Positions 1 through 42,333 of a stretch of DNA of 64,000 nt are shown here, in pieces. A program made the position numbers and the translations under genes. The DNA comes from an uncultured Actinomycetota bacterium (GTDB taxonomy: Bacteria > Actinomycetota > Actinomycetes > Propionibacteriales > Nocardioidaceae): the NCBI GenBank assembly GCA_963713255.1, contig CAVQLC010000002.1:99746-163745 (forward strand). Reading direction: 5' to 3'. Under the pieces are notes generated by a model that was not told the origin of the DNA, ran no database searches, and was given only the letters and a program-made list of their open reading frames with translations. How positions within the stretch are numbered: position 1 is the first letter of the stretch; the number at the start of each line of letters is the position of its first letter.

Positions 1-207
1 GAGACCGAGGATCGGCCCGCTGTCGAGCATGTAGACCCGGGAGGCGCCGGCCCGGGCGGCGAGGAAGCCCAGCAGGCCGGTCCCCGCGCCGAGGTCGACG
101 ACGACGTCGCCCGGTCGGACGCTCGCCGTCAGGGCTCGCTCGTAAGCCTCGATCTTGGAGCGATCACGAAAGTAGCCCGCGTGCTCGAGGAGCTCGGATC
201 GTGACAC
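1..207 (-). CDS. class I SAM-dependent methyltransferase, N-terminal 69 codons (rest lies beyond window start)
   Basis: Own translation from GTG 207-205: VSRSELLEHAGYFRDRSKIEAYERALTASVRPGDVVVDLGAGTGLLGFLAARAGASRVYMLDSGPILGL. Contains SAM motif I VVDLGAGTG. AAGGG lies 3 nt upstream. Absent from the ORF track because it runs off the window. Confidence 0.6.
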   Translation of the reverse strand, partial: MSRSELLEHAGYFRDRSKIEAYERALTASVRPGDVVVDLGAGTGLLGFLAARAGASRVYMLDSGPILGL

Positions 208-212
208 GACCC

Positions 213-361
213 TTAGTGAGAGTAGCTGGTCACATGGCCATCTGCATGTGGCGCCGCCGCCGTCGGCGACGGAGCCGCCGGGGCCCTGCACCAGGGTGGT
301 CAGGGCGCCGTAGTGGCGAAGCTCGGGCTGTGGTGTACACGAGACGAGCGTCGTTCGTCAT
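213..361 (-). CDS. small ORF directly after the cyclase-like gene; candidate lasso-type RiPP precursor, frame broken as assembled
   Basis: ATG 361-359 overlaps the upstream TGA (ATGA) and has GGAGGA 6 nt upstream. The as-read product (361..230) is MTNDARLVYTTARASPLRRPDHPGAGPRRLRRRRRRRHMQMAM. The adjacent frame reads PELRHYGALTTLVQGPGGSVADGGG. The end is unresolved (TGA 232-230 or TAA 215-213). Confidence 0.3.
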
Positions 362-2340
362 TGGTTTCCTCCGCAGATGGCTGTTGGCCCCACGGGCCCC
401 CACGCCACAAACGTAACACGATCCAGGCCCTGCGTTTCCGCCCAACCCGATTCTGTCCGCGTCAGCGACGCCATCAGGGCGGCCCCGGCGCTCAGGGCTG
501 CCCAGAGGTCGGAAGCCCGCCGGGCCGTCCGGACCGGCGGGCGAACTCGCGCCCCGTCCGGCGTCGTAGGTCGCCAGCAGCGGCCCCGCGTCCACCCGAG
601 CGCCCAGGGCGCCGAGCGCCGGGACGGCACGGTCGCGGTCGACCGCCGCGCAGCAGCTTGCGCATGTACGGGCCGGGAGAGGTCGGCCTTGTCCGTACCG
701 GGCCACGACGGACGAGGGCAGCCGTGCTCCGAAGGCCGCGCGGTGCAGTCCCCGGTGCTCGCCGTCCCAGCGGACCTGTGTCTCCGGCAGACGCAGGACC
801 AGCTCGACCAGCGTCGGTCCAGGAACGGATAGCGCACCTCGACGCCGCGGTCGGCGGCCACAGGTCGTTCATCTGGTAGCGCCGCGGGCCCCCAGACGGC
901 GTCCACGTAGTAGCGAGCCCGGCTGGCCGTCGCGCGGTCCACACCGACGCGGTGCGCCCCGTGGACCGGGGGCAGGGGCGCGGAGACGTTCAGCCAGGGG
1001 TGGGCACGGTCCAGACGCCGCTGACGGGTGCCGAACCAGAGCGGTGTGGGCGTGGCCGCTGCCGTGCACCGGCGCGCTCGGCCGCGGTGACCGCCGCCTC
1101 GCGCGCCAGGCTCGTGGCGATCCACCGAGCCGGCCGTCCAGCGGCGCCAGGCCGCTGCTCCCGGCCGTGGTCAGGGCCTGTCGCAGCCGGCCGCAGGCCG
1201 CGAGGTCGACGACAGCGACGTCCTCGCCGTACAAGGCCTCGTCCCCGCCCACGCCGGTGAGCGACACCGAGCACCCGTGGCCGCGGCCCAGGCGTAGATG
1301 GCGTCCGTGTCGGCGGCGTCGGTGGCGTACAGCGGCTCGCCGTGCCGCCGGGCGAAGTCCACGGGTCGACGACGTCGAGGTCGTCGGCCTCGAGGAGCGT
1401 CGAGGGGGATCCCGAGGTGATCCGCGACGGCTTGCTGGTGGCTGATCTCGTCGGCCTCGGGGTCGCTGTCGGAACGCCAGGCCGACCGCACGGACGTCGC
1501 CGCCCAGAGCTGACGGCGGTGGCGGTCACGGTCGAGGAGTCGAAGCCGCCGCTGACGTCGCAGCTGACCCCGTCCGCGGGTCCGCAGGCGGCCGCGAACC
1601 GCTTCGTCGAAGGCCTCGCGCACCTGCTCAGCACGTCTCGCTCGACGCGCCTGGTCCACGGACGTCGAGCGACGGGCCGCCACCAGCGGCGCATCGTCGC
1701 TCCGCTCTTCGCCCAGCACCAGGGCGTGACCCGCGGGGAGCCGGTCGCACACCCGCTCCAGAGCGAGCGGTCGGCGGCGGCATGCCGGCGAGGTAGCCGG
1801 CGAGGTACTCCTCGTCCAGCGGCCGGCCGCCGGGGCAGGCCGGCCAGGACGGCGGCGACCGAGGACGCCACCACCACGCCGTCTGGCCGCCGACGCTGTA
1901 GCAGAGCGGCCGGACCCCGACGTGCGTCCCGAGCGGCGAACAGGGTCTGCCGGGCGCCGTCCCAGAGAGCGAACCGAAGTCGCCGACGAGGTGGTCGGGG
2001 CAGTCCGGGCCCCACCGCTCGTACGCCGCCAGGATCAGGTCGGCGTCGGTGTCCAGGGGTTGACGGGACGCGCCGCGCAGCAGCCCGCGCAGCTCGGCGC
2101 CGTTGTCGATCCGGGCGTCGGCGGTCAGCCAGAGGTCTCGCGTCGGGGTGGCGTTGCGGCAGCCGTTCGCGCTCCGCCTCGCGGGTGGTCCACCGCGCGG
2201 CGTGCAGCAGGGTGCACGGGCCCACGGTGGTCGGCTCCGAGCGGTCCCCGCCGCGCCGGGCGATCGTCTCGGCCACCGCGGCCGTCTGGGCTGCCACCTG
2301 CCGCGCGTCGGCGTGCGAGAAGGACGGCGAAGCCGCTCAC
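358..2340 (-). pseudogene. asparagine synthetase B-family enzyme, lasso-cyclase-like; at least 6 frameshifts as assembled
   Basis: Track ORFs 2125..2340, 990..2297, 1171..1752, 869..1267, 358..1125, 492..944 and 230..706 together read as one AsnB-like protein. Recognisable pieces: MSGFAVLL (Ser, not Cys, at position 2), FALWDGARQTLFAARDA, CDVSGGFDSSTV (SGGxDS PP-loop), SLTGVGGDEALYGE, GVEVRYPFLDRRLVELVLRLP. Confidence 0.7.
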
Positions 2341-2343
2341 CCC

Positions 2344-2640
2344 TCAGCCGGCGACGACGAGGAGGTCGCGCTGGAGCAGCTCACCGACGAGCGCCTGGAG
2401 GTCCGCGGCGAGCACGTCCCGCTCGACGGCGTACTCCGCGTGGATCGAGTCGACGACGGAGTCCAGGGTGCGCGGCTCCTCCAACAGCTCGAAGACGCGC
2501 GCTCCGACGCCGTCCAGCCCGTAGAACTGCTCGCTGTCCAGGTCGAGGATCACCGTCTCGGCGCCGGCGCTGCGACGGAGCACGCCGTCGGCCGCACGCA
2601 ACACCGTTGCGCCCGGGACGTGCGGCAGGGACTGTGACAT
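2344..2640 (-). CDS. PqqD-family protein (RiPP recognition element, lasso B1-like)
   Basis: Track ORF 2344..2676 with the start moved to ATG 2640 (GGAGAG upstream). Reads MSQSLPHVPGATVLRAADGVLRRSAGAETVILDLDSEQFYGLDGVGARVFELLEEPRTLDSVVDSIHAEYAVERDVLAADLQALVGELLQRDLLVV. Its stop lies 3 nt before the cyclase-like start. Confidence 0.75.
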   Translation of the reverse strand: MSQSLPHVPGATVLRAADGVLRRSAGAETVILDLDSEQFYGLDGVGARVFELLEEPRTLDSVVDSIHAEYAVERDVLAADLQALVGELLQRDLLVVAG

Positions 2641-2733
2641 GGGCTCTCCGGCGGTGTGGAAGATTAGGCACCACACGGCGTGTGGGTCTCCTCATGCTAG
2701 GCGTTGTCCCCCGCGCGATCGAACCGTTGGTAG

Positions 2734-3717
2734 GTGAGCGAAGCTGATCCATCCTGACGTCGAGCGAGCCGCCCTGGCCCTCGGACTGGACGCCGCCACC
2801 GCCGAGGTCGTCTCCCCCTCGAGTCCCGGGGCGTGTCGACGGTCCTGCTCAAGGGGCCGGCGGTCGCGCTGTACCTCTACCCCGAGAACCCGTCCCTGCG
2901 CACCTACCGCGACATCGACCTGCTGGTGGACCCGCAGGTCTTCGACGCGGCCGAGGCACTGCTGGCCGGGCTCGGGTACTCGCTGCTCGACCGAGGACCT
3001 GAGCCACCGTGAGAAGTCCTGGCTGATGGAGACACCGTGGGAGCGACCGGGGTCACCGCCGACCATGGTCGACCTGCACCGGGCGTTCCACGGCGTGGAC
3101 GACTGGGAGGCGTGGTGGACCCAGATGGACCGCCACACCCAGACCTGCCGGGTGGGTGGGTCGTCGGTGCGGATCCCGGACGCCGCGGGCTGCGCGTTGA
3201 TCGTGGCGCCTGCACGAGACGGCGGTGGGCCGCAACGCGCAGTCCGCGGAGGACCTGGACCGAGCGCTGGCGACGTTCGACGAGGCCGTGTGGGCCGAGG
3301 CGGCGCGACGTGCCGACGACGTGGGACGCGCTCGGGATGGTTCACGCTCGGCCTGTCGCGGCACCCGCTGGGCCGGCTGCTGGCCGAGCGGCTCGACCTG
3401 CCGCGCCGGCTCCCGCTCGAGGTCGCCGCCCGCTCCAGTGACGGTGAGGGCACCGATCCCGCCGAGGTCCGCGCCTGGATCCTCCTGCACCGCCTGGGGC
3501 GGACCCGCTCCTGGCGCGAGCGCGGGCTCACGTTGTGGAGCCTCGCGTTCTCCGCCGGGTCGCTGCGCACGTCGAGACCCCTGGCCAGGCAAGGCTGGTG
3601 GGGGCTGACCTGGTGCGGCTGCAGCGGCCGTTCGAGCTGGCGGCCCGCGCTCCCGGCGTGGCGTACCGGCTGTGGGTCGGGAACCGCAGGGCGCGCTGGT
3701 CCCAGCGGCGCTCCTGA
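2734..3717 (+). pseudogene. NTP_transf_5-type nucleotidyltransferase family protein; at least 4 frameshifts as assembled
   Basis: Own three-frame reading gives ESRGVSTVLLKGPAVALYLYPENPSLRTYRDIDLLVDPQVFDAAEALLAGLGYSLL, then MVDLHRAFHGVDDWEAWW, then a tail LVRLQRPFELAARAPGVAYRLWV (track 3535..3717). It parallels the intact paralog at 30248..31159 (LLHLKGPALLAGL...SSDVDVLVQPDQF). Confidence 0.55.
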
Positions 3718-3720
3718 CCC

Positions 3721-4734
3721 TCAGTCCGGCTCGACCCGTTTCATGCCGACCAGACCGGGCCGGTACGACGGGTCCTCGAGCTCCGCGACGGTCGGATGGC
3801 CGAACATCGGCAACCCCTGGGTGCGCCGGATCAGGCCCCAGACCAGCGGGACCAGCACGACCATCACCAGGCCGACGACGCCGATCAGCACCGGGTGCGT
3901 GTCGTCCTCGCCGGCGCCGAGCGGTCCCCAGCCGGCCTTGTCCAGCAGCGCGACCCCGGACATGGTCAGCACCACGACGATGCCGCGCCGGATGATCGAC
4001 TGCGGCACCCGCGGGGCGATCAGGCTGCCGAGGATGGTGCCCGGGACCGAGCCGATGATGAGCGGGATCGTGACCGACCAGTCGAGGCCGTGGAGGGCGA
4101 TGTTGGAGATGGCCGCGGCCAGCACCAGCGGCACCGCCTGCACCAGGTCCGTGCCGACCAGCTTCACCGCGGTCAGGCCCGGGTAGAGCATCAGCAGGGC
4201 GATCATGATCACCGAGCCGGAGCCCACGCTGGTGATGCCCACGAGCAGGCCGCCCAGGGCCCCGACCAGCAGGGTCGGGATCGGCCGGATCTTGGGGTTC
4301 TCGTCGCCCGGAGGTGCGCCGGACCGGACCCGGCGCAGGTTGATGTAGAGCCGCGCGGCGTACGTCGCGGCGGCGAGGAGCAGCGCGAAGCCGATGCACA
4401 GCTTGAGCACCCGGTCGAGGTCTCCGGGAGGAGCGATCGCGTTGATCAGGTGCGGGCCCAGCAGTGCCATCGGCACCGAGCCGATGATCAGCCACTTGGC
4501 CAGCGTCATGTTGGGCGAGCCCTCGCGCTTGTGCACGACCGCGCCGCCGGTCTTGTAGACGGCGGCCGCCGTGAGGTCCGCGGTGACGACGGTCGCGGCG
4601 TCGCCGACGCCGAGGAAGATCAGGGCCGGCGTCATCAGCGCGCCGCCGCCCATGCCGGTCAGGCCGACGACGGTGCCGACGAAGAAGCCGGCCGCCAGGA
4701 TGGCGAAGAACGTCGTGGTGATCTGGTCAGCCAT
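3721..4734 (-). CDS. TauE/SafE-family anion (sulfite/sulfate-type) permease
   Basis: Intact 337-aa ORF, polytopic and Gly-rich. Repeated halves GLTGMGGGALMTPALIF and GITSVGSGSVIMIALLML are typical of TauE/SafE. Confidence 0.85.
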   Translation of the reverse strand: MADQITTTFFAILAAGFFVGTVVGLTGMGGGALMTPALIFLGVGDAATVVTADLTAAAVYKTGGAVVHKREGSPNMTLAKWLIIGSVPMALLGPHLINAIAPPGDLDRVLKLCIGFALLLAAATYAARLYINLRRVRSGAPPGDENPKIRPIPTLLVGALGGLLVGITSVGSGSVIMIALLMLYPGLTAVKLVGTDLVQAVPLVLAAAISNIALHGLDWSVTIPLIIGSVPGTILGSLIAPRVPQSIIRRGIVVVLTMSGVALLDKAGWGPLGAGEDDTHPVLIGVVGLVMVVLVPLVWGLIRRTQGLPMFGHPTVAELEDPSYRPGLVGMKRVEPD

Positions 4735-4777
4735 GGGTGCCTTCGGGGGTGCGGGGTGGGGGCATAGCCGCGGAAGT

Positions 4778-6565
4778 CTACTGACTCGCCTGAGTTGGTC
4801 GCAGCGCTGGGACGACGATACCGAGCAGGTCGTCGATCCGGGCCTTGCACGTCGCGGCGACCTCGGGACCGCGGCGGTACGGGTCGTCCACGTCGTGGCG
4901 GGGGTCCGCCTGGGACCGGTGCCGGCCGATCTCGGCGACCAGCGCGCGACCGCGGGGGGCGTCGGCGCCCAGCGTGGCCACCGCGTCCGCGAACTGACCG
5001 AGCGTGAACACCTTGCGGAACGCCCCCGGGGTCTCCTCGAGCAGGTAGGTGCGGTGCGCGGCCTCGGCGGTGAGCACCAGGTCGGCCGCCTCGACCAGGT
5101 CGACGGTGGCGCGCCGGCTGCGGAACCTGCGGGCGTCGGTCTCGAAGCCGCCGATCATCTCCTCGCTCATCGGACGGTCGGCGAACCCGTGGGTGCCCGC
5201 GCTGGACACCTCGATCCCGGAGGCCGGACCGAGCAGGCGCCGGGTCGCCAGCTCCATGTACGGCGAGCGGCAGATGTTCGCGGTGCAGACGAAGAGGACC
5301 TTGAGGGGCGGGTTGTCGGCGTGCCCGGGTCTCGAGGCTCGCTCCGCTCGCACCTCGACCACCGGGGTGGCCGCGTCCGTCAGGTCGAGGTAGCCGGCGT
5401 CGCGGAGTGCGACGAGGACGTCGTCGAGGGCGTCCTCGATGGACCGGCCGGTGGTGTCGACGCGCACGGCCGCGTCCTCCGGCACCTCGTAGGGCGAGGA
5501 GATGCCGGTGAACTCCGGGATCTCGCCGCGCCGGGCCTTCGCGTAGAGACCCTTGCGGTCGCGTCGCTCGCACTCCTCCAGCGGGGTGGCCACGTGCACG
5601 AGGAAGAACGCACCGCCGGCCTCCTCGACCATCGCCCGCACCTGTCGCCGGGTCTCGTCGAACGGCGCGATCGGGCTGCACACGGCGACGCCGCCGTGCC
5701 GGGCGATCTCGGCGGCGACCCAGCCGATCCGGCGGATGTTCGTCTCCCGGTCCTCCTTGGAGAACGTCAGCCCCGCCGAGAGGTGCCGGCGGACGACGTC
5801 ACCGTCCAGGCTGGTCACGCTCCGGCCGCCGCGCTCCAGCAGGCGGTCCATCAGCGCCCGCGCGAGCGTGGACTTGCCGCTGCCGGAGAGCCCGGTGAAG
5901 AACAGCACCAGGCCCTGCTCCTCGGGAGCCGGCCGGTCCGCCGTCACGATCGCGGCCAGCTCGTCGGGCAGCTCGCCCCCGTCCACCAGCCCGTGCACGG
6001 GGTCGCCGTCGGCGTAGACGCCGACCACCTGGGCCCCGAGGGCGTGGTCCACGTCCGCGTCGCCGTGGCTCGCGAGCGGGACCACGACGACGTCGGCGGC
6101 CGGGAGCGTGGCCGCGGCGACCAGGGTCGCCCGCACCAGGGCGGTGGGGGAGAGCTCAGGGGTGCCGGTGCCGGCGAGCGCCAGCAGCACCAGCGGCCCA
6201 CGGCCGCGCAGGTCGTCGAGCTGGGTGTCGGTGAGCGCGTCGACGACGGGCACGAAGGTGCGCCCGGCGTACCGCGCGCGGACCTCGGCAGGCGGGAGGT
6301 AGAGGCGGCGGAACGGGCCGTACTGCGCGTGGGTGAGAGGCTCGACGGCCGAGCCCGCGGTGACCCGCGCGAGCGGCAGGCCCTCGGGGTCGACCAGCTC
6401 GACGGACTCGGCCCCGTGCAGCTCCTCGGGCAGGTCGAGCGTGAGCGGGCTGCCGGGCTCGTTGAAGCCGGTGACCGGTGCGGCCGCCCCGGTGACGATC
6501 AGCTCGAGGTCGTCGAGCTCGGTCGGGCTCGGGTGGTGCTGGGGAGGCGTCGGCACGCGGATCAT
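4778..6565 (-). CDS. cysC: fusion protein: sulfurylase-like N-terminal region + adenylylsulfate (APS) kinase + C-terminal low-molecular-weight phosphotyrosine phosphatase
   Basis: Intact ORF 4778..6625; start placed at the internal ATG 6565 (MIRVPTPP), with 6625 as an alternative. APS kinase: FFTGLSGSGKSTLARAL, PEFTGISSPYEVP. LMW-PTP: VLFVCTANICRSPYME (CX5R) and DDPY. Confidence 0.8.
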   Translation of the reverse strand: MIRVPTPPQHHPSPTELDDLELIVTGAAAPVTGFNEPGSPLTLDLPEELHGAESVELVDPEGLPLARVTAGSAVEPLTHAQYGPFRRLYLPPAEVRARYAGRTFVPVVDALTDTQLDDLRGRGPLVLLALAGTGTPELSPTALVRATLVAAATLPAADVVVVPLASHGDADVDHALGAQVVGVYADGDPVHGLVDGGELPDELAAIVTADRPAPEEQGLVLFFTGLSGSGKSTLARALMDRLLERGGRSVTSLDGDVVRRHLSAGLTFSKEDRETNIRRIGWVAAEIARHGGVAVCSPIAPFDETRRQVRAMVEEAGGAFFLVHVATPLEECERRDRKGLYAKARRGEIPEFTGISSPYEVPEDAAVRVDTTGRSIEDALDDVLVALRDAGYLDLTDAATPVVEVRAERASRPGHADNPPLKVLFVCTANICRSPYMELATRRLLGPASGIEVSSAGTHGFADRPMSEEMIGGFETDARRFRSRRATVDLVEAADLVLTAEAAHRTYLLEETPGAFRKVFTLGQFADAVATLGADAPRGRALVAEIGRHRSQADPRHDVDDPYRRGPEVAATCKARIDDLLGIVVPALRPTQASQ

Positions 6566-6623
6566 CCTGCCACCCGGCCGGGTCCCGCCGAGCCGCCCAC
6601 CGGGGCCGACTAGCCTGCCCGGC

Positions 6624-7601
6624 ATGTCTGCTCCAGTGCCGGTGGCCGAGATCGTCCGCTCGGGTTTCGTCGAGGGCCACCACTACGGCTCGGTCGTCGC
6701 CCTGGACCTCGACGGAGCGGTCGCCTGGTCGGTGGGCGTCGTCGACGAGCCGATGCTGCCCCGCTCCTGCAACAAGCCGGTCCAGGCGCTCGGCATGGTC
6801 CGCGCCGGGCTCGACCTGCCGCCCGACCTGCTCGCCCTGGCCTGCGCCTCGCACAGCGGGGAGCCCATCCACATCGAGGGGACGCGGCGCATCCTGGCCC
6901 TGGCGGGCCTCGACGAGGACGCCTTGCAGACCCCGGCGGACTACCCCTTGGACGAGCACGCCCGGGAGCTGGTCATCCGCGCCGGCGGCGGACGCGCGCC
7001 GATCCTGATGAACTGCTCGGGCAAGCACGCCGCGATGCTCGTCACCTGCGTGGTGAACGGGTGGGACACCACGACCTACCTCGACCCCGGGCACCCGTTG
7101 CAGCGGGCGCTGCGCGACACGTTCGGGGAGCTCACCGGCGAGCCGGTGGCCGTGGTCGCCGTGGACGGCTGCGGTGCGCCGCTCTTCTCCGCCTCGTTGG
7201 TCGGCCTGGCCACCGCGTTCCGCCGGATCGCCCTGGGCGTGGACGGCCGGGACGAACCCGACCCCGACGCCCGGCGCGTGGCCGAGGCCATCCGGGCCCA
7301 CCCGGAGTACGCCTCCGGCACGGCCCGCGACGAGGCCGCGCTGCTGCGGGCCATCCCCGGCGCGGTCGGGAAGGCCGGGGCGGAGTCCTGCTACGCCGTG
7401 GCGCTGGCGGACGGCCGCGCGTTCGCGCTCAAGACCGACGACGGCGCCCCCCGGGTGCGGCCGGTGCTGATGGCGGCCGCGCTGGCGCGCAGCGGCGTCG
7501 ACCTCGAGCCGGGGGTGGACACCGAGGCGGTCCACCGCACCGGCGTGCTCGACCTGCTCGGGGGCGGGGTGCGCGTGGGGGAGATCCGCGCCACGTTGTG
7601 A
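6624..7601 (+). CDS. L-asparaginase II-family protein
   Basis: Internal ATG (M98) of track ORF 6333..7601. Reads MSAPVPVAEIVRSGFVEGHHYGSVVALD...PRSCNKPVQALGMV...ACASHSGEPIH...MNCSGKHAAML...VDGCGAP. Confidence 0.8.
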   Translation: MSAPVPVAEIVRSGFVEGHHYGSVVALDLDGAVAWSVGVVDEPMLPRSCNKPVQALGMVRAGLDLPPDLLALACASHSGEPIHIEGTRRILALAGLDEDALQTPADYPLDEHARELVIRAGGGRAPILMNCSGKHAAMLVTCVVNGWDTTTYLDPGHPLQRALRDTFGELTGEPVAVVAVDGCGAPLFSASLVGLATAFRRIALGVDGRDEPDPDARRVAEAIRAHPEYASGTARDEAALLRAIPGAVGKAGAESCYAVALADGRAFALKTDDGAPRVRPVLMAAALARSGVDLEPGVDTEAVHRTGVLDLLGGGVRVGEIRATL

Positions 7602-9352
7602 TGGTGCAGGCTGCCCCCATGCACTACGTCGGGATCGACCTCGCGTGGGGGGAGAAGCAGCCCACCGGGGTGGCGGTGCTCGACGCGGACGCCCGGCTCG
7701 TCCACCTGGGCACGGTGCGCACCGACGACGAGATCGCGGCCGCGCTGGCGCCGTACGTCGAGGGCCGCTGCCTGGTCGGCATCGACGCCCCGCTGGTCGT
7801 GCGGAACGCGACCGGCTCCCGGCCGGCCGAGCAGGCGCTGAGCAAGGACTTCCGGGCGTTCGAGGCCGGCACCCACCCGTCCAACACGACCAAGGCGGAG
7901 TTCGCCGACGGTCACACCCGCGGCGCCCGGGTCGCCAAGCGGCTGGGCCTCGACATGGACCCCCGGTCGGGTCGCGAGCGCCGGGCGATCGAGGTCTACC
8001 CGCACCCGGCGATCGTGGTGCTCTTCCGCCTGGGCCGCACCCTGAAGTACAAGAACAAGCCCGGCCGCGACTTCGCCGAGCTGCGCAGCGAGCTGCTGGC
8101 GCTGATGGGCCACCTCGAGGGGGTCATCTCCCCCGACCAGGCGTGGCGGCGGCTGCGCGCCCAGGTCGAGACCGCGACCCGGAAGAGCGAGCTGCGGGTG
8201 GCCGAGGACCAGGTCGATGCCGTGGTCGCGGCGTACGTCGCCCTGTACGCCGACCGGCACCCCGAGCTCACCACCACCTACGGCGACTTCGAGACCGGCT
8301 ACATCGTGACGCCCACGCTGCCCGACGGGCATACCGCGACCCCCCGGGCCCCGCGGGCGACGCGGCCGCCCGCCGACCCGGTGACGGCGTACGCCGCCCA
8401 GCACCCGGAGCTCACCCGGGCCGCGGAGCAGTGGACCGCGCTGGTCACCTCGATCCTGGACGACGCGGGCATCAACTACCTCACCGTCACGGGGCGCGCG
8501 AAGACGATCTCGTCCTTCGCCGCCAAGGCGGCGCGCGTCGAGAACGGCGAGCCGAGCTTCACCGACCCCCTGACGGAGATCACCGACCAGATCGGCGTGC
8601 GCGTCATCACCTACGTGCACAGCGACGTGGCGGCGGTCGTCGACCTGCTCGGCGACCAGGTCGTCATCCACGACGACCGGGACATGGGCCGGGAGACCGC
8701 CAGCGAGGGCCGCTTCGGCTACGCCAGCCGGCACCTGCTGGTCGGTCTGGACGCGCCCCGCGAGCACCTGCCGGCGTACGAAGCGCTGCGGGGGCGTCGG
8801 GCGCAGGTGCAGATCCGCACCGTCCTGCAGCACGCGTGGGCGGAGTTCGAGCACGACATCCGGTACAAGGGCACCATCCCCGACGAGCACGTGCCGGACT
8901 TCGACCGGCGCTTCACCCTGGCCGCCGGGCTGCTCGAGCTCGCGGACCGCGAGTTCTCGACGATCCGGGACCGGCTCCAGGCGGGCATGACCGACCAACC
9001 GACGGCGCCCGGCGACGACGACCCGCGGATCAGCCCGCGTGAGCTGGCGGCCTTCCTGGCCGGGCAGTACTCCGACGCCGGCTGGTCGCGCACCGACCAC
9101 TACGCCTGGATCTCCGGGCTGCTGCTGGAGCTCGGCATCACGTCGCTGGACGAGCTGGGCGACGTGCTGCGGGCCCTGGACGGCGCCGACCTCACCGCCC
9201 GGATGGGCTACCGGTACCCGCCGGGCGCGGTGCGCCGCCTCGACGACGCCCTGCTCGCGGCGTACGGCGAGCGGTACGTCGGGCTGCGGGGCAACGCCCA
9301 CCGGGAACCCGCGCTGCGGGCCCGGCTGGAGAAGCTGGTCGACGGAGCCTGA
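7601..9352 (+). CDS. DUF429 (predicted RNase H-fold nuclease)-RelA/SpoT nucleotide pyrophosphokinase fusion protein
   Basis: M181 of track ORF 7061..9352; the ATG overlaps the asparaginase stop by 1 nt. N-terminal part: HYVGIDLAWGEKQPTGVAVLD...GIDAPLVVRN...EVYPHPA. C-terminal part: ITDQIGVRVITY...GRFGYASRHLLV...VQIRTVLQHAWAEFEHDIRYK, followed by an extra tail of about 130 aa. Confidence 0.75.
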   Translation: MVQAAPMHYVGIDLAWGEKQPTGVAVLDADARLVHLGTVRTDDEIAAALAPYVEGRCLVGIDAPLVVRNATGSRPAEQALSKDFRAFEAGTHPSNTTKAEFADGHTRGARVAKRLGLDMDPRSGRERRAIEVYPHPAIVVLFRLGRTLKYKNKPGRDFAELRSELLALMGHLEGVISPDQAWRRLRAQVETATRKSELRVAEDQVDAVVAAYVALYADRHPELTTTYGDFETGYIVTPTLPDGHTATPRAPRATRPPADPVTAYAAQHPELTRAAEQWTALVTSILDDAGINYLTVTGRAKTISSFAAKAARVENGEPSFTDPLTEITDQIGVRVITYVHSDVAAVVDLLGDQVVIHDDRDMGRETASEGRFGYASRHLLVGLDAPREHLPAYEALRGRRAQVQIRTVLQHAWAEFEHDIRYKGTIPDEHVPDFDRRFTLAAGLLELADREFSTIRDRLQAGMTDQPTAPGDDDPRISPRELAAFLAGQYSDAGWSRTDHYAWISGLLLELGITSLDELGDVLRALDGADLTARMGYRYPPGAVRRLDDALLAAYGERYVGLRGNAHREPALRARLEKLVDGA

Positions 9353-9356
9353 CCGG

Positions 9357-10191
9357 TCAGTGCGGCCAGACGGCGCGGACCTGCGCGGCCACCTCGCGGG
9401 ACTGGCGCAGGCCGGTGCGGGCCGCGTCGGCGCGCTTCTCGGGGTTGAGCACGTTGCGCCCGATGTCGAGGGCCGCCTGCTTGTCGGGCTTGACCACCAC
9501 CGAGCGGACCGGGCCGATCCGGCGCAGCTGCGCGGCGATCGAGGTGGCCCGGCTGAAGGCCTGCGGCAGCGGCGCCAGCACCACCACGACGTCGGCGCCG
9601 CGGGCCACGTCGACGTTGGCCGTCGACCGCATGCCACCGTCCATGAAGTGCCGACCGTGGATCGTCACCGCGGGCCAGACCAGCGGGACCGCGCAGCTCG
9701 CGGCGACGGCGTCGACGAGGTCGACGCCGCTGTTCTTGTCGAAGGTGACGAACTCGCCGGAGTCGGTGTCGACCGAGGTGATGAGCAGCTCCCGGTCGGG
9801 CCAGTCGGTGACGTCGATCCGGGACCGGATCACCTCGATCCGCTCCGTCGCCCCCGGGCGTGTGCGCCTTGGTCGACAGGCGGCCGATCCGGCGGCGCTT
9901 GCGGGTGGGCGCGCCGGGCACCAGCAGCGGCGGCAGCAGGCGGGCCAGGTCGTTGCGGCCCATGGTGGAGCCGATCTCGTGGTCGGGGGGCTCGAGCTGG
10001 AGGTCGTAGAGGTCGGCGAGATCGAGGCCCGAGGTGATCTGGGCGCCGACGACGGAGCCGGCCGAGGTCCCGACGACCCGGTCGGCGTCGGTGAGCTTCA
10101 GGCCCTGCTCCGCCAGCCCCTGGAGGATGCCGAGCTCCCAGGCGATGCCGGTGATCCCGCCGCCGCCGAGCACGAGTGCCGTACGTGTCAT
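9357..10191 (-). pseudogene. patatin-like phospholipase; one frameshift near 9835-9850 as assembled
   Basis: Track ORFs 9208..10191 (MTRTALVLGGGGITGIAWELG...GTSAGSVVG) and 9357..9833 (...HFMDGGMRSTANVD) join into one patatin fold, with GGGxxG, GxSxG and DGG motifs. Confidence 0.75.
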
Positions 10192-10292
10192 GGCGCGACC
10201 CTAGGCGGTCGGAGCAAGCGCCGCGCACCCGTGTGAGCCGACTCACGGGGCCTCAGCTTGCAAATGCTTGCTCTTGCTAGCAGGGTGGAGGC

Positions 10293-10679
10293 ATGGCCAG
10301 GAGCAAGGTCGGGCAGACCGTCGAGTCGCTCGGCGAGTACCTCAAGGAGCAGCGGGTCTCGGCCCGCCTCTCCCTGCGGCAGCTCTCCGAGCAGGCCGGC
10401 GTCTCGAACCCGTACCTCAGCCAGATCGAGCGTGGTCTGCGCAAGCCCTCGGCCGACGTCCTGCAGCAGATCGCCAAGGCGCTGCGCATCTCGGCGGAGC
10501 AGCTCTACATCCGCGCCGGCATCCTCAGCCCCGAGGACCTGCAGGCCGGCTCGGAGCGGTCCGTGGAGCTCGCGGTGCTCGCGGACTCGGGGCTCACCGA
10601 GCGGCAGAAGCAGTCCCTGCTCGACGTCTACGCGTCCTTTCTCGCCCTCAACGGGCCCGTCGAGGACGACGACCGCTGA
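10293..10679 (+). CDS. XRE-family helix-turn-helix transcriptional regulator
   Basis: Intact 128-aa ORF with GGAGG before the ATG. HTH region: LSLRQLSEQAGVSNPYLSQIERGLRKPSADVLQQIAKAL. Confidence 0.85.
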   Translation: MARSKVGQTVESLGEYLKEQRVSARLSLRQLSEQAGVSNPYLSQIERGLRKPSADVLQQIAKALRISAEQLYIRAGILSPEDLQAGSERSVELAVLADSGLTERQKQSLLDVYASFLALNGPVEDDDR

Positions 10680-10729
10680 CCCGGGCACCCGGCACCCGCC
10701 GGACGCCCACCCCACCGATAGGAGAAGTC

Positions 10730-11338
10730 GTGGCTACCAAGTCCCGCACCAAGATCGACCTCAAGACCGTGCAGACCCCCTTCTACGCGACCGTCGGCGT
10801 GACCGACCTCGCCGTCGAGGCCGTGCGTGAGTACGTCGCCGACGTGCAGACCCGCGTCCGTGGCTACCAGAAGGACGTCCAGAAGACCGTCGCCAAGGTC
10901 GACCTCCAGCCCAAGGTGCTGCGCGACCAGGCCGTCACGGTCCTCTCGGCCCGCGTCGACGCCCTCACCGCGCTGTCCGGCGACGCCAAGGCCGTCCCGG
11001 CCAAGGTGCAGACGCTCGTCGACGAGAACGTCGCCGTGCTGAACGACACCTACGGTGACCTGGTCAAGCGCGGCGAGAGCCTCGTCGGCCGGATCCGCCG
11101 TCAGCAGTCGACCCAGCAGACCGTGAAGTCCGCCGAGACCACCGTGTCGAAGGCCAAGACCACGAAGACGCAGGCCACCAAGGCGACCAAGACCACGGCC
11201 AAGAAGGCCACCACCACGGCCAAGAAGCAGAGCGCCTCGTCCAAGAGCAGCGCCAAGGCCACCGTCACCGCGGCCAAGAAGACCGCGTCCTCGGCCACCC
11301 AGGCCGTCGCCGACGCGGCCGAGAAGGTCGGCGACTGA
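10730..11338 (+). CDS. HbhA-like (heparin-binding hemagglutinin-like) coiled-coil protein with Lys/Ala/Thr-rich C-terminal tail
   Basis: GTG (V155 of track ORF 10268..11338) with AGGAGA upstream. Starts VATKSRTKIDLKTVQTPFYATVGVTDLAVEAVREYV. Tail is KAKTTKTQATKATKTTAKKATTTAKKQSASSKSSAKATVTAAKK. It sits between an XRE regulator and DUF2516, as I recall for mycobacterial Rv0474-Rv0476. Confidence 0.6.
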   Translation: MATKSRTKIDLKTVQTPFYATVGVTDLAVEAVREYVADVQTRVRGYQKDVQKTVAKVDLQPKVLRDQAVTVLSARVDALTALSGDAKAVPAKVQTLVDENVAVLNDTYGDLVKRGESLVGRIRRQQSTQQTVKSAETTVSKAKTTKTQATKATKTTAKKATTTAKKQSASSKSSAKATVTAAKKTASSATQAVADAAEKVGD

Positions 11339-13281: not shown

Positions 13282-15120
13282 GTGCAGCGCGGGATCTCCA
13301 CGCTGCGGCGACGCCGCACGCGCCTCCTCATCACGTTCGACGTGCTGGTGTGGATGGGTGGCGGGTGCTCGGTCGCGGCGCTGCTGCGTTATCCCGAGCT
13401 GAGGTCAGCCCTCCGTGGGGCTCGGTGCTCGTCATGGCCGCCTGGCATGGGCGTGCTCTACATCGGCCTCGGCATGCTGATCAGGCTGCACGAGGGCCGG
13501 GCTCGCACCGCCAGCTTCGACGAGATGCTGCTGCTCGGGTCGGTCGCCCGCGCTCGCGGTGCGTGGTCTTCGTCGTCCAACCTCTTCAGCACGTACGTGG
13601 CCCGCAGCCTGCCCGCCATCACGACCTTGTGCTTCGTCGTGCTGGCGCCTGTGGCGGGCGGGCTCTGTGGCGGCGGCTGGTGGAGCGAGACGCTCGCTGG
13701 CGGCCGTGCAGCCCGCTCGGACGCGTCGGACGTGCTCCTGGTCGGGGCCGGTGAGGCGGCCCGGGAGCTGATCAGCTCCATGCTGAGGGACCCGAGCACG
13801 ACGTGGCGACCCGTCGGGCATGCTCGACGACGACCCGCGCAAGCAGCATCTCCGGGTGCGCGGCGTGCCGGTGCTCGGCCCGATCGCGCGACCTCGCGGC
13901 CCAGGTCGGGCGGACCGCAGGTCGACAGGGTCGTCCTCGCCATCCCGAGCGCCGGCAACGAGGTGGTCCGCGAGGTCACCCGCATGGCGGCCGCTGCCAA
14001 GGTCGACCTCAAGGTGCTGCCCGCGGTCGACCGAGCTCCTCACCGAGCACGTGGGCATCCGCGACATCCGCGACCTCAACCTCACGGACCTGCTCGGCCG
14101 CAACCAGCTCGACACCGACATCGAGGCCATCGCCGGCTACGTGACGGGCAAGCGGGTCCTGGTCACCGGCGCGGGGGGTCGATCGGGTCCGAGCTCTGCC
14201 GCAGATCGATCGGTTCGCGCCCGCCGAGCTCATCATGCTCGATCGCGACGAGTCCGCCCTGCACGCGGTGCAGCTGTCCTTCCGCGGCCGGGCGATGCTG
14301 GACTCGGACGACGTCGTCCTCTGCGACATCCGGGACGCGCAGCCCCTGACGCAGATCTTCCGGAGGCGTCGGCCCGACGTCGTCTTCCACGCTGCGGCCC
14401 TCAAGCACCTCCCGATGCTGGAGCAGTACCCCGCCGAGGCGGTCAAGACCAACGTCATCGGCACCCGCAACGTCCTCGACGCGGCTCGCGCCGCCGGCGT
14501 CCGCCGCTTCGTCAACATCTCCACCGACAAGGCCGCCAACCCGGAGAGCGTGCTCGGCTACTCCAAGCGCGTGGCTGAACGCATCACGGCGACCTACGCC
14601 GAAGACGCAGACGACGCGGTCTACGTCTCCGTGCGCTTCGGGAACGTCCTGGGCAGCCGCGGGTCGGTGTTGACGGCGTTCGCCGACCAGATCGCCCGCG
14701 GCGGGCCGGTGACGGTGACGCACCGATGTCACCCGCTACTTCATGACGATCGAGGAAGCGTGCCAGCTCGTGGTCCAGGCGGGAGCGATCGGCGAGCCCG
14801 GTCAGGCCCTGGTGCTCGACATGGGGGAGGCGGTGCGGATCGTGGACGTCGCGCACCAGCTGATCGACCTGGCCGGCCGCGAGATCGACGTCGAGTTCAC
14901 CGGCCTTCGCGAGGGAGAGAAGCTGCACGAGGACCTGTTCGGTGACGGCGAGCCGCACGACATCAGGCCCGACCATCCCCTGATCTCGCACGTGCCAGTG
15001 CCACCGGTTCCACGGGCCGAGGTCTCGGCCCTGTCCACCCGGGCAGCAACCCGGAGATCATCGCCGGCCTGGCCGCCCTGTGCTTCGACGAAACCCAGCG
15101 GCGTGACCCGCGCGGGTTAG
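13282..15120 (+). pseudogene. membrane-anchored CapD/WbpM/PglF-like NDP-sugar 4,6-dehydratase; at least 5 frameshifts as assembled
   Basis: Joined frames read VLLVGAGEAARELISSMLRD, MLDDDPRKQHLRVRGVPVLG, VLAIPSAGNEVVREV, KRVLVTGAGGSIGSELCRQI, VVFHAAALKHLPMLEQYPAEAVKTNVIGT, FVNISTDKAANPESVLGYSKR, RFGNVLGSRGSV and [16 protein letters not shown]. Confidence 0.75.
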
Positions 15121-35152: not shown

Positions 35153-35210
35153 AGCTGTCCCGATGGTAACTCGGGTCCCGCGAGTTGCGCCCGGATGAAT
35201 CCAGATTTTG

Positions 35211-36326
35211 CTATAGGTCTGGTCCAGTGAGCAGCGTCACCTCGTCGCGCAGGCGCGCGGCGAACGGAGCCGCGGTGAACCGCGCCGCGTGGTCGGTCAG
35301 CGCCGTCGTCGACCACGACGTCCGGGCCGCCTCGTCCAACGCCCGCCTGATCGCGCCGGGCTCGCTGCGGTCGAAGAAGAGTCCCGTGCGTCCCTCCACG
35401 ATGGTGTCGAGGTAGCCCCCGGCGCGGAGCGCCAGCGTGGGACGTCCGAACGCCGCCGCCTCCAGCGGGGTGAGCCCGAAGTCCTCGAGGCTGGGCGCCA
35501 CCAGCTGGACGGCGTGCGCGTAGACCCAGCGGAGCTGCGCGTCGGTGAGGCTGGAGACCAGGCGCATCCGCGGGCCGAGCCGCGCCCGGAGCCGCTGCTC
35601 CTCCGGCCCGTGGCCGACGATGACGAGCCGGTCGGGGAGGTCGGCGAACGCCTCGACCACCTTGTCGACGTTCTTGTACGGCAGCAGGCGGGAGACCACG
35701 AGGCTGTACCCGAGGTCCTCCCACGGCACCAGCTCGGGCACCGGCTCCTGCTCAGCCGAGGCGTCCACGCCGTGCGGCGGGGGCACCACGTCGGCGTCGA
35801 TGCCGTAGGCGGCCTTGATCCGGTCGCGGACCGTCGTCGAGTTCGCCAGGTAGCGGTCCGCGCGCACCGCAGCCCGGCGGTCCCAGCGCCGCAGCGGCGG
35901 CGCCCCGAGCGCCAGCGCGAGCCGGCCGGTCCGGGCGCGCGAGCTGCTGCCGCCGAGGTAGTCGTCGGCCTGGTAGAGCCAGCGCGCGGGGTTGTGGCAG
36001 TAGACGAGGCGCCGACCGCTGATGTCGAAACCGTGCGCCCAGCCGCTCGAGGACACGACCGTCACGTCGGCGTCGACCCGGAGCCGGCTCGAGGCCGCCG
36101 CGAGGAGCGGGAGCGCGGCCCGGTGGTGCCGGCGCAGCGGGCCGAACCGGTCGAGGGCGGACGTGACGATCCGGGCGTCGCGGAACTCGGGGTAGGTGCT
36201 CTCGGGGTCGTAGAGAGTCGTGTAGAGGGTGGCGTCGGGGAACGCCTCGAGCATGGTGAGGACCACGCGCTCGGCCCCGCCGCGCTGGGTGAGGTAGTCG
36301 TGGGCGATGGCGACGGTCGGTCCCAT
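35211..36326 (-). CDS. GT4-family glycosyltransferase
   Basis: Last 371 codons of chimeric track ORF 35211..37880: MGPTVAIAHDYLTQRGGAERVVL...SRLLPYKNVDKVVEAF...VAPSLEDFGLTPLEAAAFGRPTLALRAGGYLDTIVEGRTGLFF (E-x7-E region). Confidence 0.8.
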   Translation of the reverse strand: MGPTVAIAHDYLTQRGGAERVVLTMLEAFPDATLYTTLYDPESTYPEFRDARIVTSALDRFGPLRRHHRAALPLLAAASSRLRVDADVTVVSSSGWAHGFDISGRRLVYCHNPARWLYQADDYLGGSSSRARTGRLALALGAPPLRRWDRRAAVRADRYLANSTTVRDRIKAAYGIDADVVPPPHGVDASAEQEPVPELVPWEDLGYSLVVSRLLPYKNVDKVVEAFADLPDRLVIVGHGPEEQRLRARLGPRMRLVSSLTDAQLRWVYAHAVQLVAPSLEDFGLTPLEAAAFGRPTLALRAGGYLDTIVEGRTGLFFDRSEPGAIRRALDEAARTSWSTTALTDHAARFTAAPFAARLRDEVTLLTGPDL

Positions 36327-36328
36327 GG

Positions 36329-37277
36329 CTAGATCCGCCCCTCGGTGCGGTCGGCGCCGTGGCCCGCGAGCGCGGCCCCCTCGACCAGGACCGCCACCAG
36401 CTTCTCGGCGACGGGCACCGGGACGAACGGCACCACGCGGTCGACCGCGCGGCCCAGCCCGGCCAGGCGATCCTCGGTCGCGAGCCGCGCGCTCCCGGCC
36501 ACCGCGGCGCCCCACCACCCGTGACCGGCCGAGGGCGACGGCATCAGTGCCTCGACCCCGTCGTCCGCGTGCTGCTCGACGAAGTGCTGCCGGGCCGCCC
36601 CCGAGTAGTAGGCGCGCAGGGCGCGGTCGCCCGTCGTCGCCGCCGCACCGTGGTGCAGGGCCTCGACGTCGGGCTCGACGGAGATCGGGACGCCGGCCCG
36701 GTGCAGCCGGTACCCCCAGTCCACGTCCTCCCAGCCGTAGGCGCGGTAGCTCACGTCGTACTCCCCGACCCGGCGCCACGTGTCGGCGGTGACCGAGACG
36801 TTGGCGGCCCAGTAGCGCCACGCCTGGTCCGGGGGGGAGGCGTACGCCGCCCGGCGGAAGCGGCGGTCGGCGCGCTCGCCGTACGCCCGCGCGTAGGGGC
36901 CCGGCGCGAAGACGTTGCGGCACAGCCCCACCACCCCGATCGGCCCGTCGGCGGCGTCGTGGTGGGCGGCGTGCCGGGCGAGGTGCGCGTCGGCGAGCTC
37001 GAGGTCGTCGTCGGAGCGGAGGAGCACGTCGCCGGTGGCCGCGCCGAAGCCGGCGTTGAGGGCCGCGGAGCGCCCCTGGTTCTCGGGGAGCACGAGCGTG
37101 CGGACCGGGAGGTCGCCCGCCAGGCGCGCCACGACCTGCTCCGACCCGTCGATGTCGCCGTCGACGACCACGACGGCCTCCCAGCTCGGATGCGTCTGGC
37201 GGCGCAGCGACGCGAGCAGCAGCGGCAGCCGGCTGCGCGCCGCCGCGGGTCGGCACCACCACGGACACGGTCGTCAC
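36329..37277 (-). pseudogene. GT2-family glycosyltransferase; one frameshift near 37230 as assembled
   Basis: GTG 37277 (GTGA overlap) gives VTTVSVVVPTRGG. The shifted frame gives RLPLLLASLRRQTHPSWEAVVVVDGDIDGS...ENQGRSAALNAG...LRSDDDL (track 36329..37171). Confidence 0.7.
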
Positions 37278-38316
37278 GACGCCGCCCGGTCGAGGCTGAG
37301 CCCGAGGTCCTCGAGGAGGGCGCGCACCGCGGCCCGCCCGGCGGCGGGGGAGTAGAGGTGCTGCCAGCGGTCCCGGGCGGCCGCGACGACCGGAGCCGGG
37401 TCGGCGTCGAGGGCAGCGGCCAGCGCGCGGGCGAGATCCTCGGCGTCGCCGGCGCTGGACACCCACGGGTGGGCCGGGCCGACGACCTCGGTGAGCGCAC
37501 CGGCGTCGCTGACGACGACCGGCACGCCCGCCGCCATCGCCTCGGCGGCCGCCAGGCCGAACGACTCGGGCGCGGTGCTCGGGACGACGGCGACGTCGAC
37601 GGCGTCGAAGAACCTGTCCCGCCGCATCCAGTCGCGCTGCTGGGCGCCCACCGTCATCAGGGCCATGGTCACCAGCCGACGCTGGTCGTCGGGGACGAAG
37701 CGGAAGTCTCCCGCGACCAGCAGCCGAAGTCGGCCGGCCCCTCTCGGCGAGCGCCGCGACGGCCTCGGCGAGGACGTCGACGCCCTTGTCGTGGGAGAGC
37801 CGGCCCAGGTAGCCGACGACCGGTGTGTCGCGGCGCCTGCGGTGGGTGGGCCGGGTGTCCTCGGTCCAGTTGGGCAGCACCCGGCTCCCGGGCAGCCGCG
37901 CGGCCGAGGAACGCCGAGGGCACGACCACGGCCAGGGCGCCGGCGACGGGCCAGAGCTGGGCGCTGAGCCGCTGGCCGAGCCCGGTGGGGAGCTGGTGGA
38001 GGTGCACGATCCGGTCGGGGTGCCCCGCCGTCGCCAACGCCGGGAGCAGCCCGTGGCACCACAGGATGCCCGGCCGGTCGGCGTCCCAGCGCCGGAGCCG
38101 GCGCGCGTAGTCGGCGCGGCCGCGCCCGGGGACCGGCACCGTCGCGAGGCCGAGGTCGGCGGCCGAGCGCAGCGTCTGGTCGGGCTGGGCCGGCGCGACC
38201 ACGGTCACGTCGAGGCCGAGGTCGCGCGCCGTGGTGGCGCAGCGCAGCAGCATCACCTCGCCCCCGCCGACCTGCCCCTGGTTCGCGGCCAGGTGGAGTG
38301 CGGTCGCCCCGCTCAC
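37274..38316 (-). pseudogene. GT4/GT1-family glycosyltransferase; two frameshifts (about 37735 and 37880)
   Basis: GTG 38316 (GTGA overlap) gives VSGATALHLAANQGQVGGGEVMLL (track 37669..38892). It continues GYLGRLSHDKGVDVL (track 35211..37880) and VVPSTAPESFGLAAAEAMAAGVPVVVSDAGAL (track 37274..38062). Confidence 0.65.
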
Positions 38317-41642: not shown

Positions 41643-41670
41643 GGGTGGACCTCCCCTCCAGCGCCCAACG

Positions 41671-42333
41671 CTACGGGGTCGTCAGGTGCTGCGCTGCCAC
41701 TTCGAGATCGAGAGGGGTGTCGATGTCCACACCCTCGACCTCGTCCATGACGAACAGGTGCACCCGGCCGCCGAGCCGGTTGTGCTGCTCGAGGTAGACC
41801 TCGGTGCGGGTGACGTAGAGCGAGCCGGTCTCGCGGTAGCGCAGCCGGTCGGGGGTCAGGTCCTGGCGCCGGGGTCGCCGGGTGACGTCGTAGTCGGCGG
41901 TCGGCGGGTCGGTCGCCCACCAGAGGAAGGGCGCCTGCGCCACCACGCCGACCAGCGAGTCCGCGCCCGCGTCGTCGAGCTCGGCGAGGGCCCGGGCCAG
42001 GGTGCCCGGGAGCCGCACGGGGGAGGTGGCCTGGAGCAGCATCACCCGGTCGGGGCGCTCGGCCCGGGACGCGATCGCGTGCAGGACGACCGGCTCCGTC
42101 GCGGTGGTGTCCTGCGCCAGCTCGGCGGGCCGGACCAGGACCTCCGCGCCGTACGACGCGGCGACCTCGGCGATCTCGGCGTCCTCGGTGGACACCACGA
42201 CCTCGAGCCCGTCGACGGCCAGCGCCTGCTCGATCGTCCACGCGATCAGGGGCTTGCCGGCACAGTCCGCGAGGTTCTTGCGGGGGATGCCCTTGGACCC
42301 GCCGCGGGCGGGGATGACGCACAAGGTGGTCAT
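41671..42333 (-). CDS. neuA: acylneuraminate (nonulosonic acid) cytidylyltransferase
   Basis: Last 220 codons of chimeric track ORF 41671..43554, with ATGA overlap upstream. Reads MTTLCVIPARGGSKGIPRKNLADCAGKPLIAWTIEQAL...LLQATSPVR...RRPRRQDL...ETGSLYV. Confidence 0.8.
   Translation of the reverse strand: MTTLCVIPARGGSKGIPRKNLADCAGKPLIAWTIEQALAVDGLEVVVSTEDAEIAEVAASYGAEVLVRPAELAQDTTATEPVVLHAIASRAERPDRVMLLQATSPVRLPGTLARALAELDDAGADSLVGVVAQAPFLWWATDPPTADYDVTRRPRRQDLTPDRLRYRETGSLYVTRTEVYLEQHNRLGGRVHLFVMDEVEGVDIDTPLDLEVAAQHLTTP

Follow-up and report, generated by a model that had tools for sequence, protein, structure and literature searches.

The first 3,717 nucleotides of the window (the whole stretch of 64,000 nucleotides analyzed here, ~74% G+C, from contig CAVQLC010000002.1 of an uncultured member of the Nocardioidaceae) are the right-hand half of a 7.9-kb lasso-peptide island located between TauE and cysD in a Nocardioides-like lineage of soil bacteria. 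The full cluster consists of a divergent nucleotidyltransferase (NTase) gene and the series B1-C-A-MT-kinase-ABC exporter-B2, where B1 is a PqqD-like leader-binding protein or RiPP recognition element (RRE; RiPP, ribosomally made peptide with post-translational modifications), C the lasso cyclase, A the precursor, MT a methyltransferase and B2 a transglutaminase-like (Transglut_core3) leader protease. We assign the locus with high confidence to the Val(-2) lasso clusters associated with a kinase and an NTase, here extended by a methyltransferase of the protein arginine methyltransferase (PRMT) fold. Taken as a whole, the observations are likely to be best explained by a lasso island in which the numerous frame breaks are mostly consensus errors, and the cluster is probably functional and badly resolved by assembly. 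A lasso-type module had been proposed in the initial annotation of this DNA, which placed all of its elements correctly or nearly so, and this proposal is supported by profile matches, conserved architecture and the precursor.

The missing half of the cluster was read from a sister strain and from homologous loci. An RRE protein identical to that of the window is encoded on L001, a 589-kb ENA metagenome contig with 97.3% identity to the window over 12.7 kb. This contig is from a sister strain of the window lineage. It continues for 7.6 kb leftward beyond window position 1, and in this part the methyltransferase gene is completed and genes for an HPr-kinase-related protein, an ABC exporter and B2 are found, followed by cysD and cysN. 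RRE homologs with 55-68% identity were found on five more independent contigs, including JGI, Logan and MEGAHIT short-read assemblies, and the architecture is kept intact on L002/L003, L004, L006 and L007/L008. On those contigs long enough to show the layout, Asn_synthase proteins of 591-624 aa are accompanied by one or two ORFs of 41-47 aa, a methyltransferase of ~380 aa, a kinase-like protein of 302-305 aa, an ABC protein of 578-598 aa and a Transglut_core3 protein of 142-152 aa. The order B1-C-A-MT, which had been considered atypical, is the conserved order in the homologous loci of this family.

No Transglut_core3 (B2) gene was found within 1-3717, in agreement with the initial annotation, which had suggested that such a peptidase could lie to the left of position 1. 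B2 and the ABC exporter are indeed situated there in L001 and in all five homologous loci, B2 being the final cluster gene in every complete locus; by comparison with L001, the contig of the window would carry B2 as well. The B2 of L001 matches NF033537 with 76.5 bits (cutoff 33) despite one frame break, and that of L004 with 93.6 bits. Residues RCLARS...AHAWVE...ND were visible in an alignment inspected for the Cys/His/Asp triad. The HPr-kinase-like gene, also outside the window, has three frame breaks in L001 and is intact in the homologs; its match to TIGR04352 is weak, at just 30 bits against a cutoff of 200.

The lasso cyclase C is a homolog of asparagine synthetase encoded at 358-2340 on the minus strand. 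It starts with GTG at 2340 (VSGFAV), lacks the N-terminal Cys nucleophile and contains the PP-loop SGGFDSS at 1553-1533, the latter two features being as first annotated. The frame-corrected protein covers residues 1-617 of the 619-aa L007 cyclase, with 62% identity over 613 aligned residues, and matches Asn_synthase (131.7 bits) and GATase_7 (79 bits). NF033535 was the top model both for the window cyclase (287 bits) and for its intact homologs (range 283-300 bits). The same proteins scored 192-210 bits on the asparagine synthase model (window 192), and 145-152 and 122-138 bits, respectively, on the exopolysaccharide (EPS) and N-acetylglutaminylglutamine amidotransferase models TIGR03108 and TIGR03104. 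The NF033535 cutoff of 525 bits was reached neither by the window cyclase nor by the intact homologs; since the latter fall short as well, this indicates a divergent cyclase clade and not an effect of the frameshifts. The shortfall, together with a large polysaccharide locus just 8 kb from the cluster, could favor the alternative, also raised in the initial annotation, that the AsnB-family gene codes for an amidotransferase acting on sugars or polysaccharides and belongs to the nearby glycan locus. We rejected this identity as extremely improbable, since the lasso cyclase model ranks first for all family members (for the window 287 bits, followed by asparagine synthase with 192 and EPS amidotransferase with 152), the amidotransferase scores are far under their cutoffs (152 vs 817 and 122 vs 570 bits), the N-terminal Cys is missing, and the gene is always flanked by PqqD, YxxPxL precursor, B2 and ABC genes.

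B1, the RRE gene (2344-2640, minus strand), is intact and encodes 98 aa. It matches PF05402 with 59.5 bits (cutoff 23.4, E=4e-16), scores 39-42 bits on the lasso-specific PqqD models, under their cutoffs of 70-80, and shares 27% identity (E=5e-10) with BsfB1 of the Bradymonas sediminis lasso cluster discussed below. Six DNA differences separate the window and L001 RRE genes, all of them synonymous and in the third position. The intergenic region between B1 and the divergent NTase gene (2641-2733), by its position a presumed promoter region, is identical in L001 apart from one homopolymer base at 2712. The NTP_transf_5 nucleotidyltransferase, or "N" gene, follows at 2734-3717 on the plus strand. 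After frame correction its product matches PF14907 with 72.3 bits (cutoff 31.2) and shares 58% identity with the L007 NTase over 318 aa. Six of its seven frame breaks are private to the window, and the L001 copy reads through those six sites. The conserved N-terminus AKLIHPDVERAAL... is preceded by an in-frame TGA both in the window (2734-2740) and in L001 (~9904-9910), and the likely GTG start at 2734 is one base out of frame in both copies. This offset represents either a lesion common to both copies or a non-canonical start.

The precursor gene A (230-361, minus strand, 43 codons) was delimited by frameshift-aware alignment to the L007 precursor, to which its product is 74% identical. Two single-base breaks, near 330 and 247, interrupt it. 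The peptide reads MTNDARLVYT(R)PELRHYGALTTLVQ / GPGGSVADGGGA(G)MQMAM, where the bracketed residues are supplied from L001. Counting the leader from the Y of YxxPxL, the window precursor has the leader YT.PELRHYGALTTLVQ and the core GPGGSVADGGGA.MQMAM; the corresponding leader and core are YVRPELHTYGAITRLVQ and GMSGVGVDGMSGMVGRD in L004, and YTRPELRHYGALTALVQ and GASGSIADGGGSSMQMMMVT in L007. The window and six homologs share one register, with Y(-17), P(-14), L(-12), V(-2), Gly or Ala in core position 1 and Asp8. Val(-2) takes the place of the canonical Thr(-2) in all seven precursors. What had been noticed as a small leader-like ORF is a conserved precursor with counterparts in six homologous loci. 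Ser3 is present in five of the six homologous precursors, while the window core, GPGGSVAD, has Gly3 and Ser5 instead. The homologous cluster on L002 contains two precursor genes, A1 (3691-3834) and A2 (3965-4090), with cores GMSGGSGD... and ASSGMMGD..., respectively.

By homology, the biosynthesis could proceed as follows. B1 would bind the YxxPxL leader of the 43-aa precursor, and the HPr-kinase-like K would phosphorylate a core serine, which is Ser3 in most members and, as the sole core serine, Ser5 in this lineage. B2, recognizing Val(-2), would cleave behind Gln(-1). The cyclase would adenylate Asp8 and form the lactam between Gly1 and Asp8, an eight-residue ring that would enclose the Gly/Met-rich tail. 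The phosphate may be decorated by the NTP_transf_5 enzyme, the PRMT-fold methyltransferase would add a methyl group, and the ABC transporter would export the product.

The closest known relative is the Bsf cluster of Bradymonas sediminis FA350, one of the Ile/Val(-2) clusters of Bradymonadales, Acidobacteriaceae and Sphingomonadales (PMC10368454), which like the present family has split B1/B2, C, K, N and D genes. In its precursor BsfA (...IYKKPQLTYHSTLAAIIR / GTSGNEVDG...), Ser3 is phosphorylated by BsfK and Ile(-2) matters for processing; Ile/Val(-2) precursors are always accompanied by a kinase (PMC10368454). Shared features include YxxPxL at -17 to -12, Ile/Val(-2) in place of Thr, the core G-x-S-G-x-x-x-D-G and the Gly1-Asp8 ring. 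BsfB1 matches the B1 proteins with E=1e-10 to 1e-15, and the P-loop core of BsfK is 47% identical to that of L002 K over 47 aa (E=3e-8), whereas the matches to L004 K (E=0.08) and to the B2 proteins (E=0.002-0.24) are weak. Unlike the Bsf cluster, the present family has an actinomycete (Nocardioides-like) host and an additional conserved PRMT-fold methyltransferase, and the window core carries Gly3 and Ser5, not Ser3. A mature lasso product has been observed for neither. An HPr-kinase-like kinase together with an NTP_transf_5 "N" gene is also found in lasso clusters of the paeninodin/pseudomycoidin type (PadeK, PsmK, PsmN), where PsmN adds a hexose to phospho-Ser in pseudomycoidin and "N" genes of this family partner such kinases (PMC9266682). 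However, those systems belong to Firmicutes, have Thr(-2) and no methyltransferase, and their kinases act on a C-terminal Ser, whereas the C-terminal residue of the precursors studied here is D, N, G, P, T or M.

The methyltransferase gene (minus strand, GTG start at 207) runs past the edge of the window, so that positions 1-207 hold its first 69 codons. These 69 residues are 75% identical to the L004 methyltransferase, contain no frameshift and include the S-adenosylmethionine (SAM) motif VVDLGAGTG. The fold was read from full-length homologs. The L004 protein aligns with PRMT1 over residues 9-276 (E=1.9e-24), which includes the Rossmann and beta-barrel domains, and a homolog matches structures of the type I enzymes PRMT1, CARM1, PRMT8, PRMT3 and PRMT6 with E ~1e-24. 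Pfam matches are to PrmA, PRMT_C and PRMT5_C, with the L002 protein scoring 30.4 bits on PRMT_C (cutoff 27) and 32.5 bits on PRMT5_C (cutoff 30.3). In the double-E loop SEWMGYFLLYESM aligns with CDQIGGFVYDAGV, both Glu being replaced by Asp, and the THW loop reads QRW; because of these changes we do not file the enzyme as an arginine methyltransferase. The core peptides compared contain no conserved Arg. A SAM methyltransferase in the cluster is a feature shared with methylated lasso peptides, among them those with lassomycin-type LasF and StspM C-terminal O-methyltransferases and those with the PIMT homologs of cellulonodin-2 and lihuanodin, but the known lasso methyltransferases have other folds, the present enzyme having the type I PRMT fold and being neither mitomycin-O-methyltransferase-like nor PIMT-like. 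A full-text literature search on lasso peptides and arginine methyltransferase returned nothing relevant, and no description of a conserved PRMT-fold methyltransferase in a lasso cluster was found. If the cluster is active, this enzyme with its altered catalytic loop would represent a new tailoring chemistry on the lasso scaffold.

The cluster is a lineage-specific island in a variable hotspot. Proteins of the flanks are 77-92% identical to those of Nocardioides metagenome-assembled genomes (MAGs) and isolates, and the order APS-kinase - TauE - [gap] - cysD - cysN is kept in more than 60 Nocardioides genomes. The TauE-cysD gap ranges from 0.45 kb, with the two genes adjacent, to 8.3 kb, and its cargo varies by species; zero lasso genes were found in this gap in 80 Nocardioides loci (L009-L088), and the lasso cluster occurs in the window/L001 lineage only. 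It is this combination of a conserved gene order with the lack of lasso genes elsewhere that identifies the island. An RRE scan of genome contigs gave no match, and no isolate genome with this lasso family was identified. The family has been seen so far in metagenomes only, and a description of it was not found; with it, the Ile/Val(-2) lasso peptides associated with a kinase and a nucleotidyltransferase reach into Actinomycetota. In one sample (ENA ERZ25039498), the cluster is present in two intact forms with 74% DNA identity, L004 and L006, on the consecutively numbered short contigs contig_34429 and contig_34428; their side-by-side occurrence shows that divergent haplotypes of the island coexist in the community.

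Frame breaks were located with our own frameshift-aware protein-to-DNA aligner using intact homologs as guides. A Viterbi frame scan missed dense frameshifts when its switch penalty was stiff, and its relaxed version is a rough proxy only. The window has 27 breaks in the cyclase (with no in-frame stop), seven in the NTase gene and two in the precursor, and none in the RRE gene or the start of the methyltransferase gene, which gives a total of 36 for positions 1-3717. The initial annotation had counted at least 10; the dense breaks it described are real and their number was underestimated. L001 has 17 breaks plus one stop in the cyclase, three in the precursor (none at the sites of the window), 14 in the methyltransferase, three in the kinase, 14 in the ABC and one in the B2 gene. 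GC content at third codon positions repeatedly switches phase at ~230-2340 and 2810-3700 and keeps a clean single phase from 3721 on. The adjacent region 3721-9352 is clean as first reported, with no frameshift in TauE and no indel relative to L001 across 3751-9000. TauE and CysN, used as controls, gave zero frame breaks. Three apparent frameshifts at the extreme N-terminus of an APS-kinase control were discarded, as they derive from translated upstream non-coding sequence in the reference ORF.

We consider it quite likely that the frame breaks are mainly assembly artefacts. This differs from the implication of the initial annotation that frameshifting is a biological property of the cluster; the lesion spectrum, the mostly private distribution, the involvement of unrelated genes and of cysD, and a control on MAGs together favor consensus error. 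Between window and L001, 110 of 116 indels are single-base, 33 (28%) are of the homopolymer type, and the largest measures 4 nt. Among the frame breaks, insertions outnumber deletions by ~4:1. Their cyclase genes differ by 57 indel events against 88 mismatches, a ratio of ~0.65. When shifts were made free at indels between the two copies, 39-41 of 43-47 were explained, and >85% of lesions are private to one strain. The corrected genes are all of ortholog length and stop-free with one exception in L001; ~3,800 corrected codons are almost free of stop codons and contain neither an insertion sequence nor a deletion >4 nt. By contrast, the flanks of the two contigs are >99% identical (~0.6% difference) without indels, and their differences are mostly in the third position (23/32). 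The transition/transversion ratio did not separate cluster from flank (0.57 vs 0.47). Codon-position and synonymous/nonsynonymous tests on the cyclase were ambiguous, as neutral decay, random error and real polymorphism under GC-skewed codons all fit.

Lesions of the same kind occur in genes unrelated to the lasso cluster. In the Wzz/GNVR tyrosine-autokinase gene (13047-11525, minus strand) there are 18 single-base breaks (14 insertions, 4 deletions) and no stop, and a CapD-like polysaccharide gene (13282-15120, plus strand) is split over four ORFs. The polysaccharide genes at 11.5-15.1 kb are broken in L001 as well, partly at identical positions. Arg/Pro-rich off-frame stretches are found in the GT2 and GT4 genes and the NeuB-like+GT4 ORF (38313-41642) at ~35200-41700, and maxima of the frame-switch proxy likewise lie at 37-38 kb and 50-53 kb. 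A single-base insertion at 17124 of L001 falls in the core gene cysD, ~330 nt past the island edge, which means that the error patch crosses the boundary between accessory and core genes.

For the control, cysN was compared across genome types. It is frame-broken in 5 of 20 loci from Nanopore-only MFD MAGs, compared with 0/35 isolates and 0/7 short-read MAGs (Fisher p=0.0024), and the lesions in the MFD MAGs, 10 of them insertions and 5 deletions, measure 1-2 nt. At the identical cysN site GATCGCCCGG^C (residue 316), an extra base is present in two Nanopore-only MAGs (L012 at 15993, L065 at 18632) that are unrelated and come from different samples. Such a coincidence shows that systematic context-dependent errors recur across independent assemblies, in this case possibly at a methylation motif. 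The MFD MAGs, whose contig naming matches that of L001, were assembled with metaFlye and one round of Medaka from soils of high microdiversity (PMC12313526). Most of the breaks in the window would accordingly be consensus errors of a long-read assembly, most likely Nanopore-only and of the metaFlye/Medaka type, and they would gather in strain-variable accessory regions with low coverage or collapsed divergent haplotypes. A consensus of this kind would yield sharp patch edges, partly shared lesions and an insertion bias. Nanopore-only metagenome contigs can thus hold dense frameshift patches in strain-variable loci, which a reader of the sequence alone takes for pseudogenisation. Biosynthetic clusters belong to precisely this class of locus, making genome-mining counts of "degraded" clusters from such assemblies suspect.

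Several points weigh against a functional lasso island with mostly artefactual breaks. The lasso enzymology is assigned wholly by homology, and the window core is without the Ser3 phospho-acceptor. The Nanopore-only origin of window and L001 was deduced from contig naming and context. In a minority of cases the two assemblies share exactly the same lesion. In the cyclase these are an additional C around codon 149 and a C5 run around codon 310; a one-base shift follows the GTG of the NTase gene (codon 2), and the Wzz gene accounts for three more sites. Since shared lesions do not arise from independent random noise, either systematic context-dependent error or real ancestry is needed. The RRE gene and its upstream region (2318-2816) contain no indel in either assembly, yet are flanked by one difference per 12 nt. 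Uniform low coverage is therefore rejected as the whole story, and the clean region needs coverage or haplotype structure, or else selection. Finally, the cyclase is first hit at nearly the same place in both copies, at codon 8, where an extra C and an extra T are 3 nt apart. Codons 8 and 221 of the cyclase resemble shared lesions, but nucleotide inspection showed independent nearby events (extra C vs extra G at 221), and a site near 1150 is private to the window. The shared lesions, the clean RRE region and the neighboring first hits count for less in view of the recurrent cysN error and of the divergent island versions found in one sample.

One possibility that would account for the identical breaks is a genuinely decaying pseudogene island, inactivated in the common ancestor of both strains and accumulating private frameshifts since, with the RRE gene kept by selection or chance. 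The RRE gene itself, with six synonymous and no nonsynonymous differences and no indel amid riddled neighbors, looks like the result of selection respecting a gene boundary. By our own chi-square estimate, the distribution of cyclase mismatches over the three codon positions (21:21:46) agrees statistically with neutral change under GC-skewed codon usage, and the island is accessory, not being found in the other Nocardioides genomes examined. Pseudogene decay in bacteria, however, is deletion-biased, with broad indel sizes and indels at about a tenth of substitutions. An indel/substitution ratio of ~0.65 with 95% single-base events and a 4:1 insertion bias is unlike this pattern, as is the scarcity of stops, larger deletions and insertion sequences in the corrected codons. 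Decay also fits poorly with lesions that are >85% private despite the small flank difference, with the hit in core cysD, and with the cysN genes of Nanopore-only MAGs, which bear the same signature, while those of the 35 isolates do not. We therefore regard this explanation as unlikely.

That the lesions are real in a broader sense, so that either a localized mutational process or very rapid decay scrambles strain-variable islands while sparing the RRE gene and all core genes, seems very unlikely to us. Its more specific form, a real localized process favoring single-base insertions in accessory islands of this lineage, would agree with the coincidence of lesion patches with strain-variable loci in both assemblies and with the nearly coinciding first cyclase lesions, but it is highly improbable given that the MAG control offers a mundane source of the same signature and that the L001 patch extends into core cysD; we know of no bacterial mechanism of localized single-base insertion in accessory islands.

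Apart from the lasso island, a glycan locus with frame breaks scattered through it takes up much of the window. Close to the island, a fusion of an APS kinase with a low-molecular-weight phosphatase domain (4778-6625, minus strand, 615 aa) is conserved across Nocardioides. It is followed by a conserved DUF429 and RelA_SpoT fusion protein (7061-9352, plus strand), which has 878 aa in L001. In an HbhA-like Lys/Ala-rich protein (ORF 10268-11338), the two strains differ at 11194-11198 by 3-, 3- and 1-base indels. These fall in the repetitive Lys/Ala/Thr-rich C-terminus and are the sole multi-base indels outside the broken patches.

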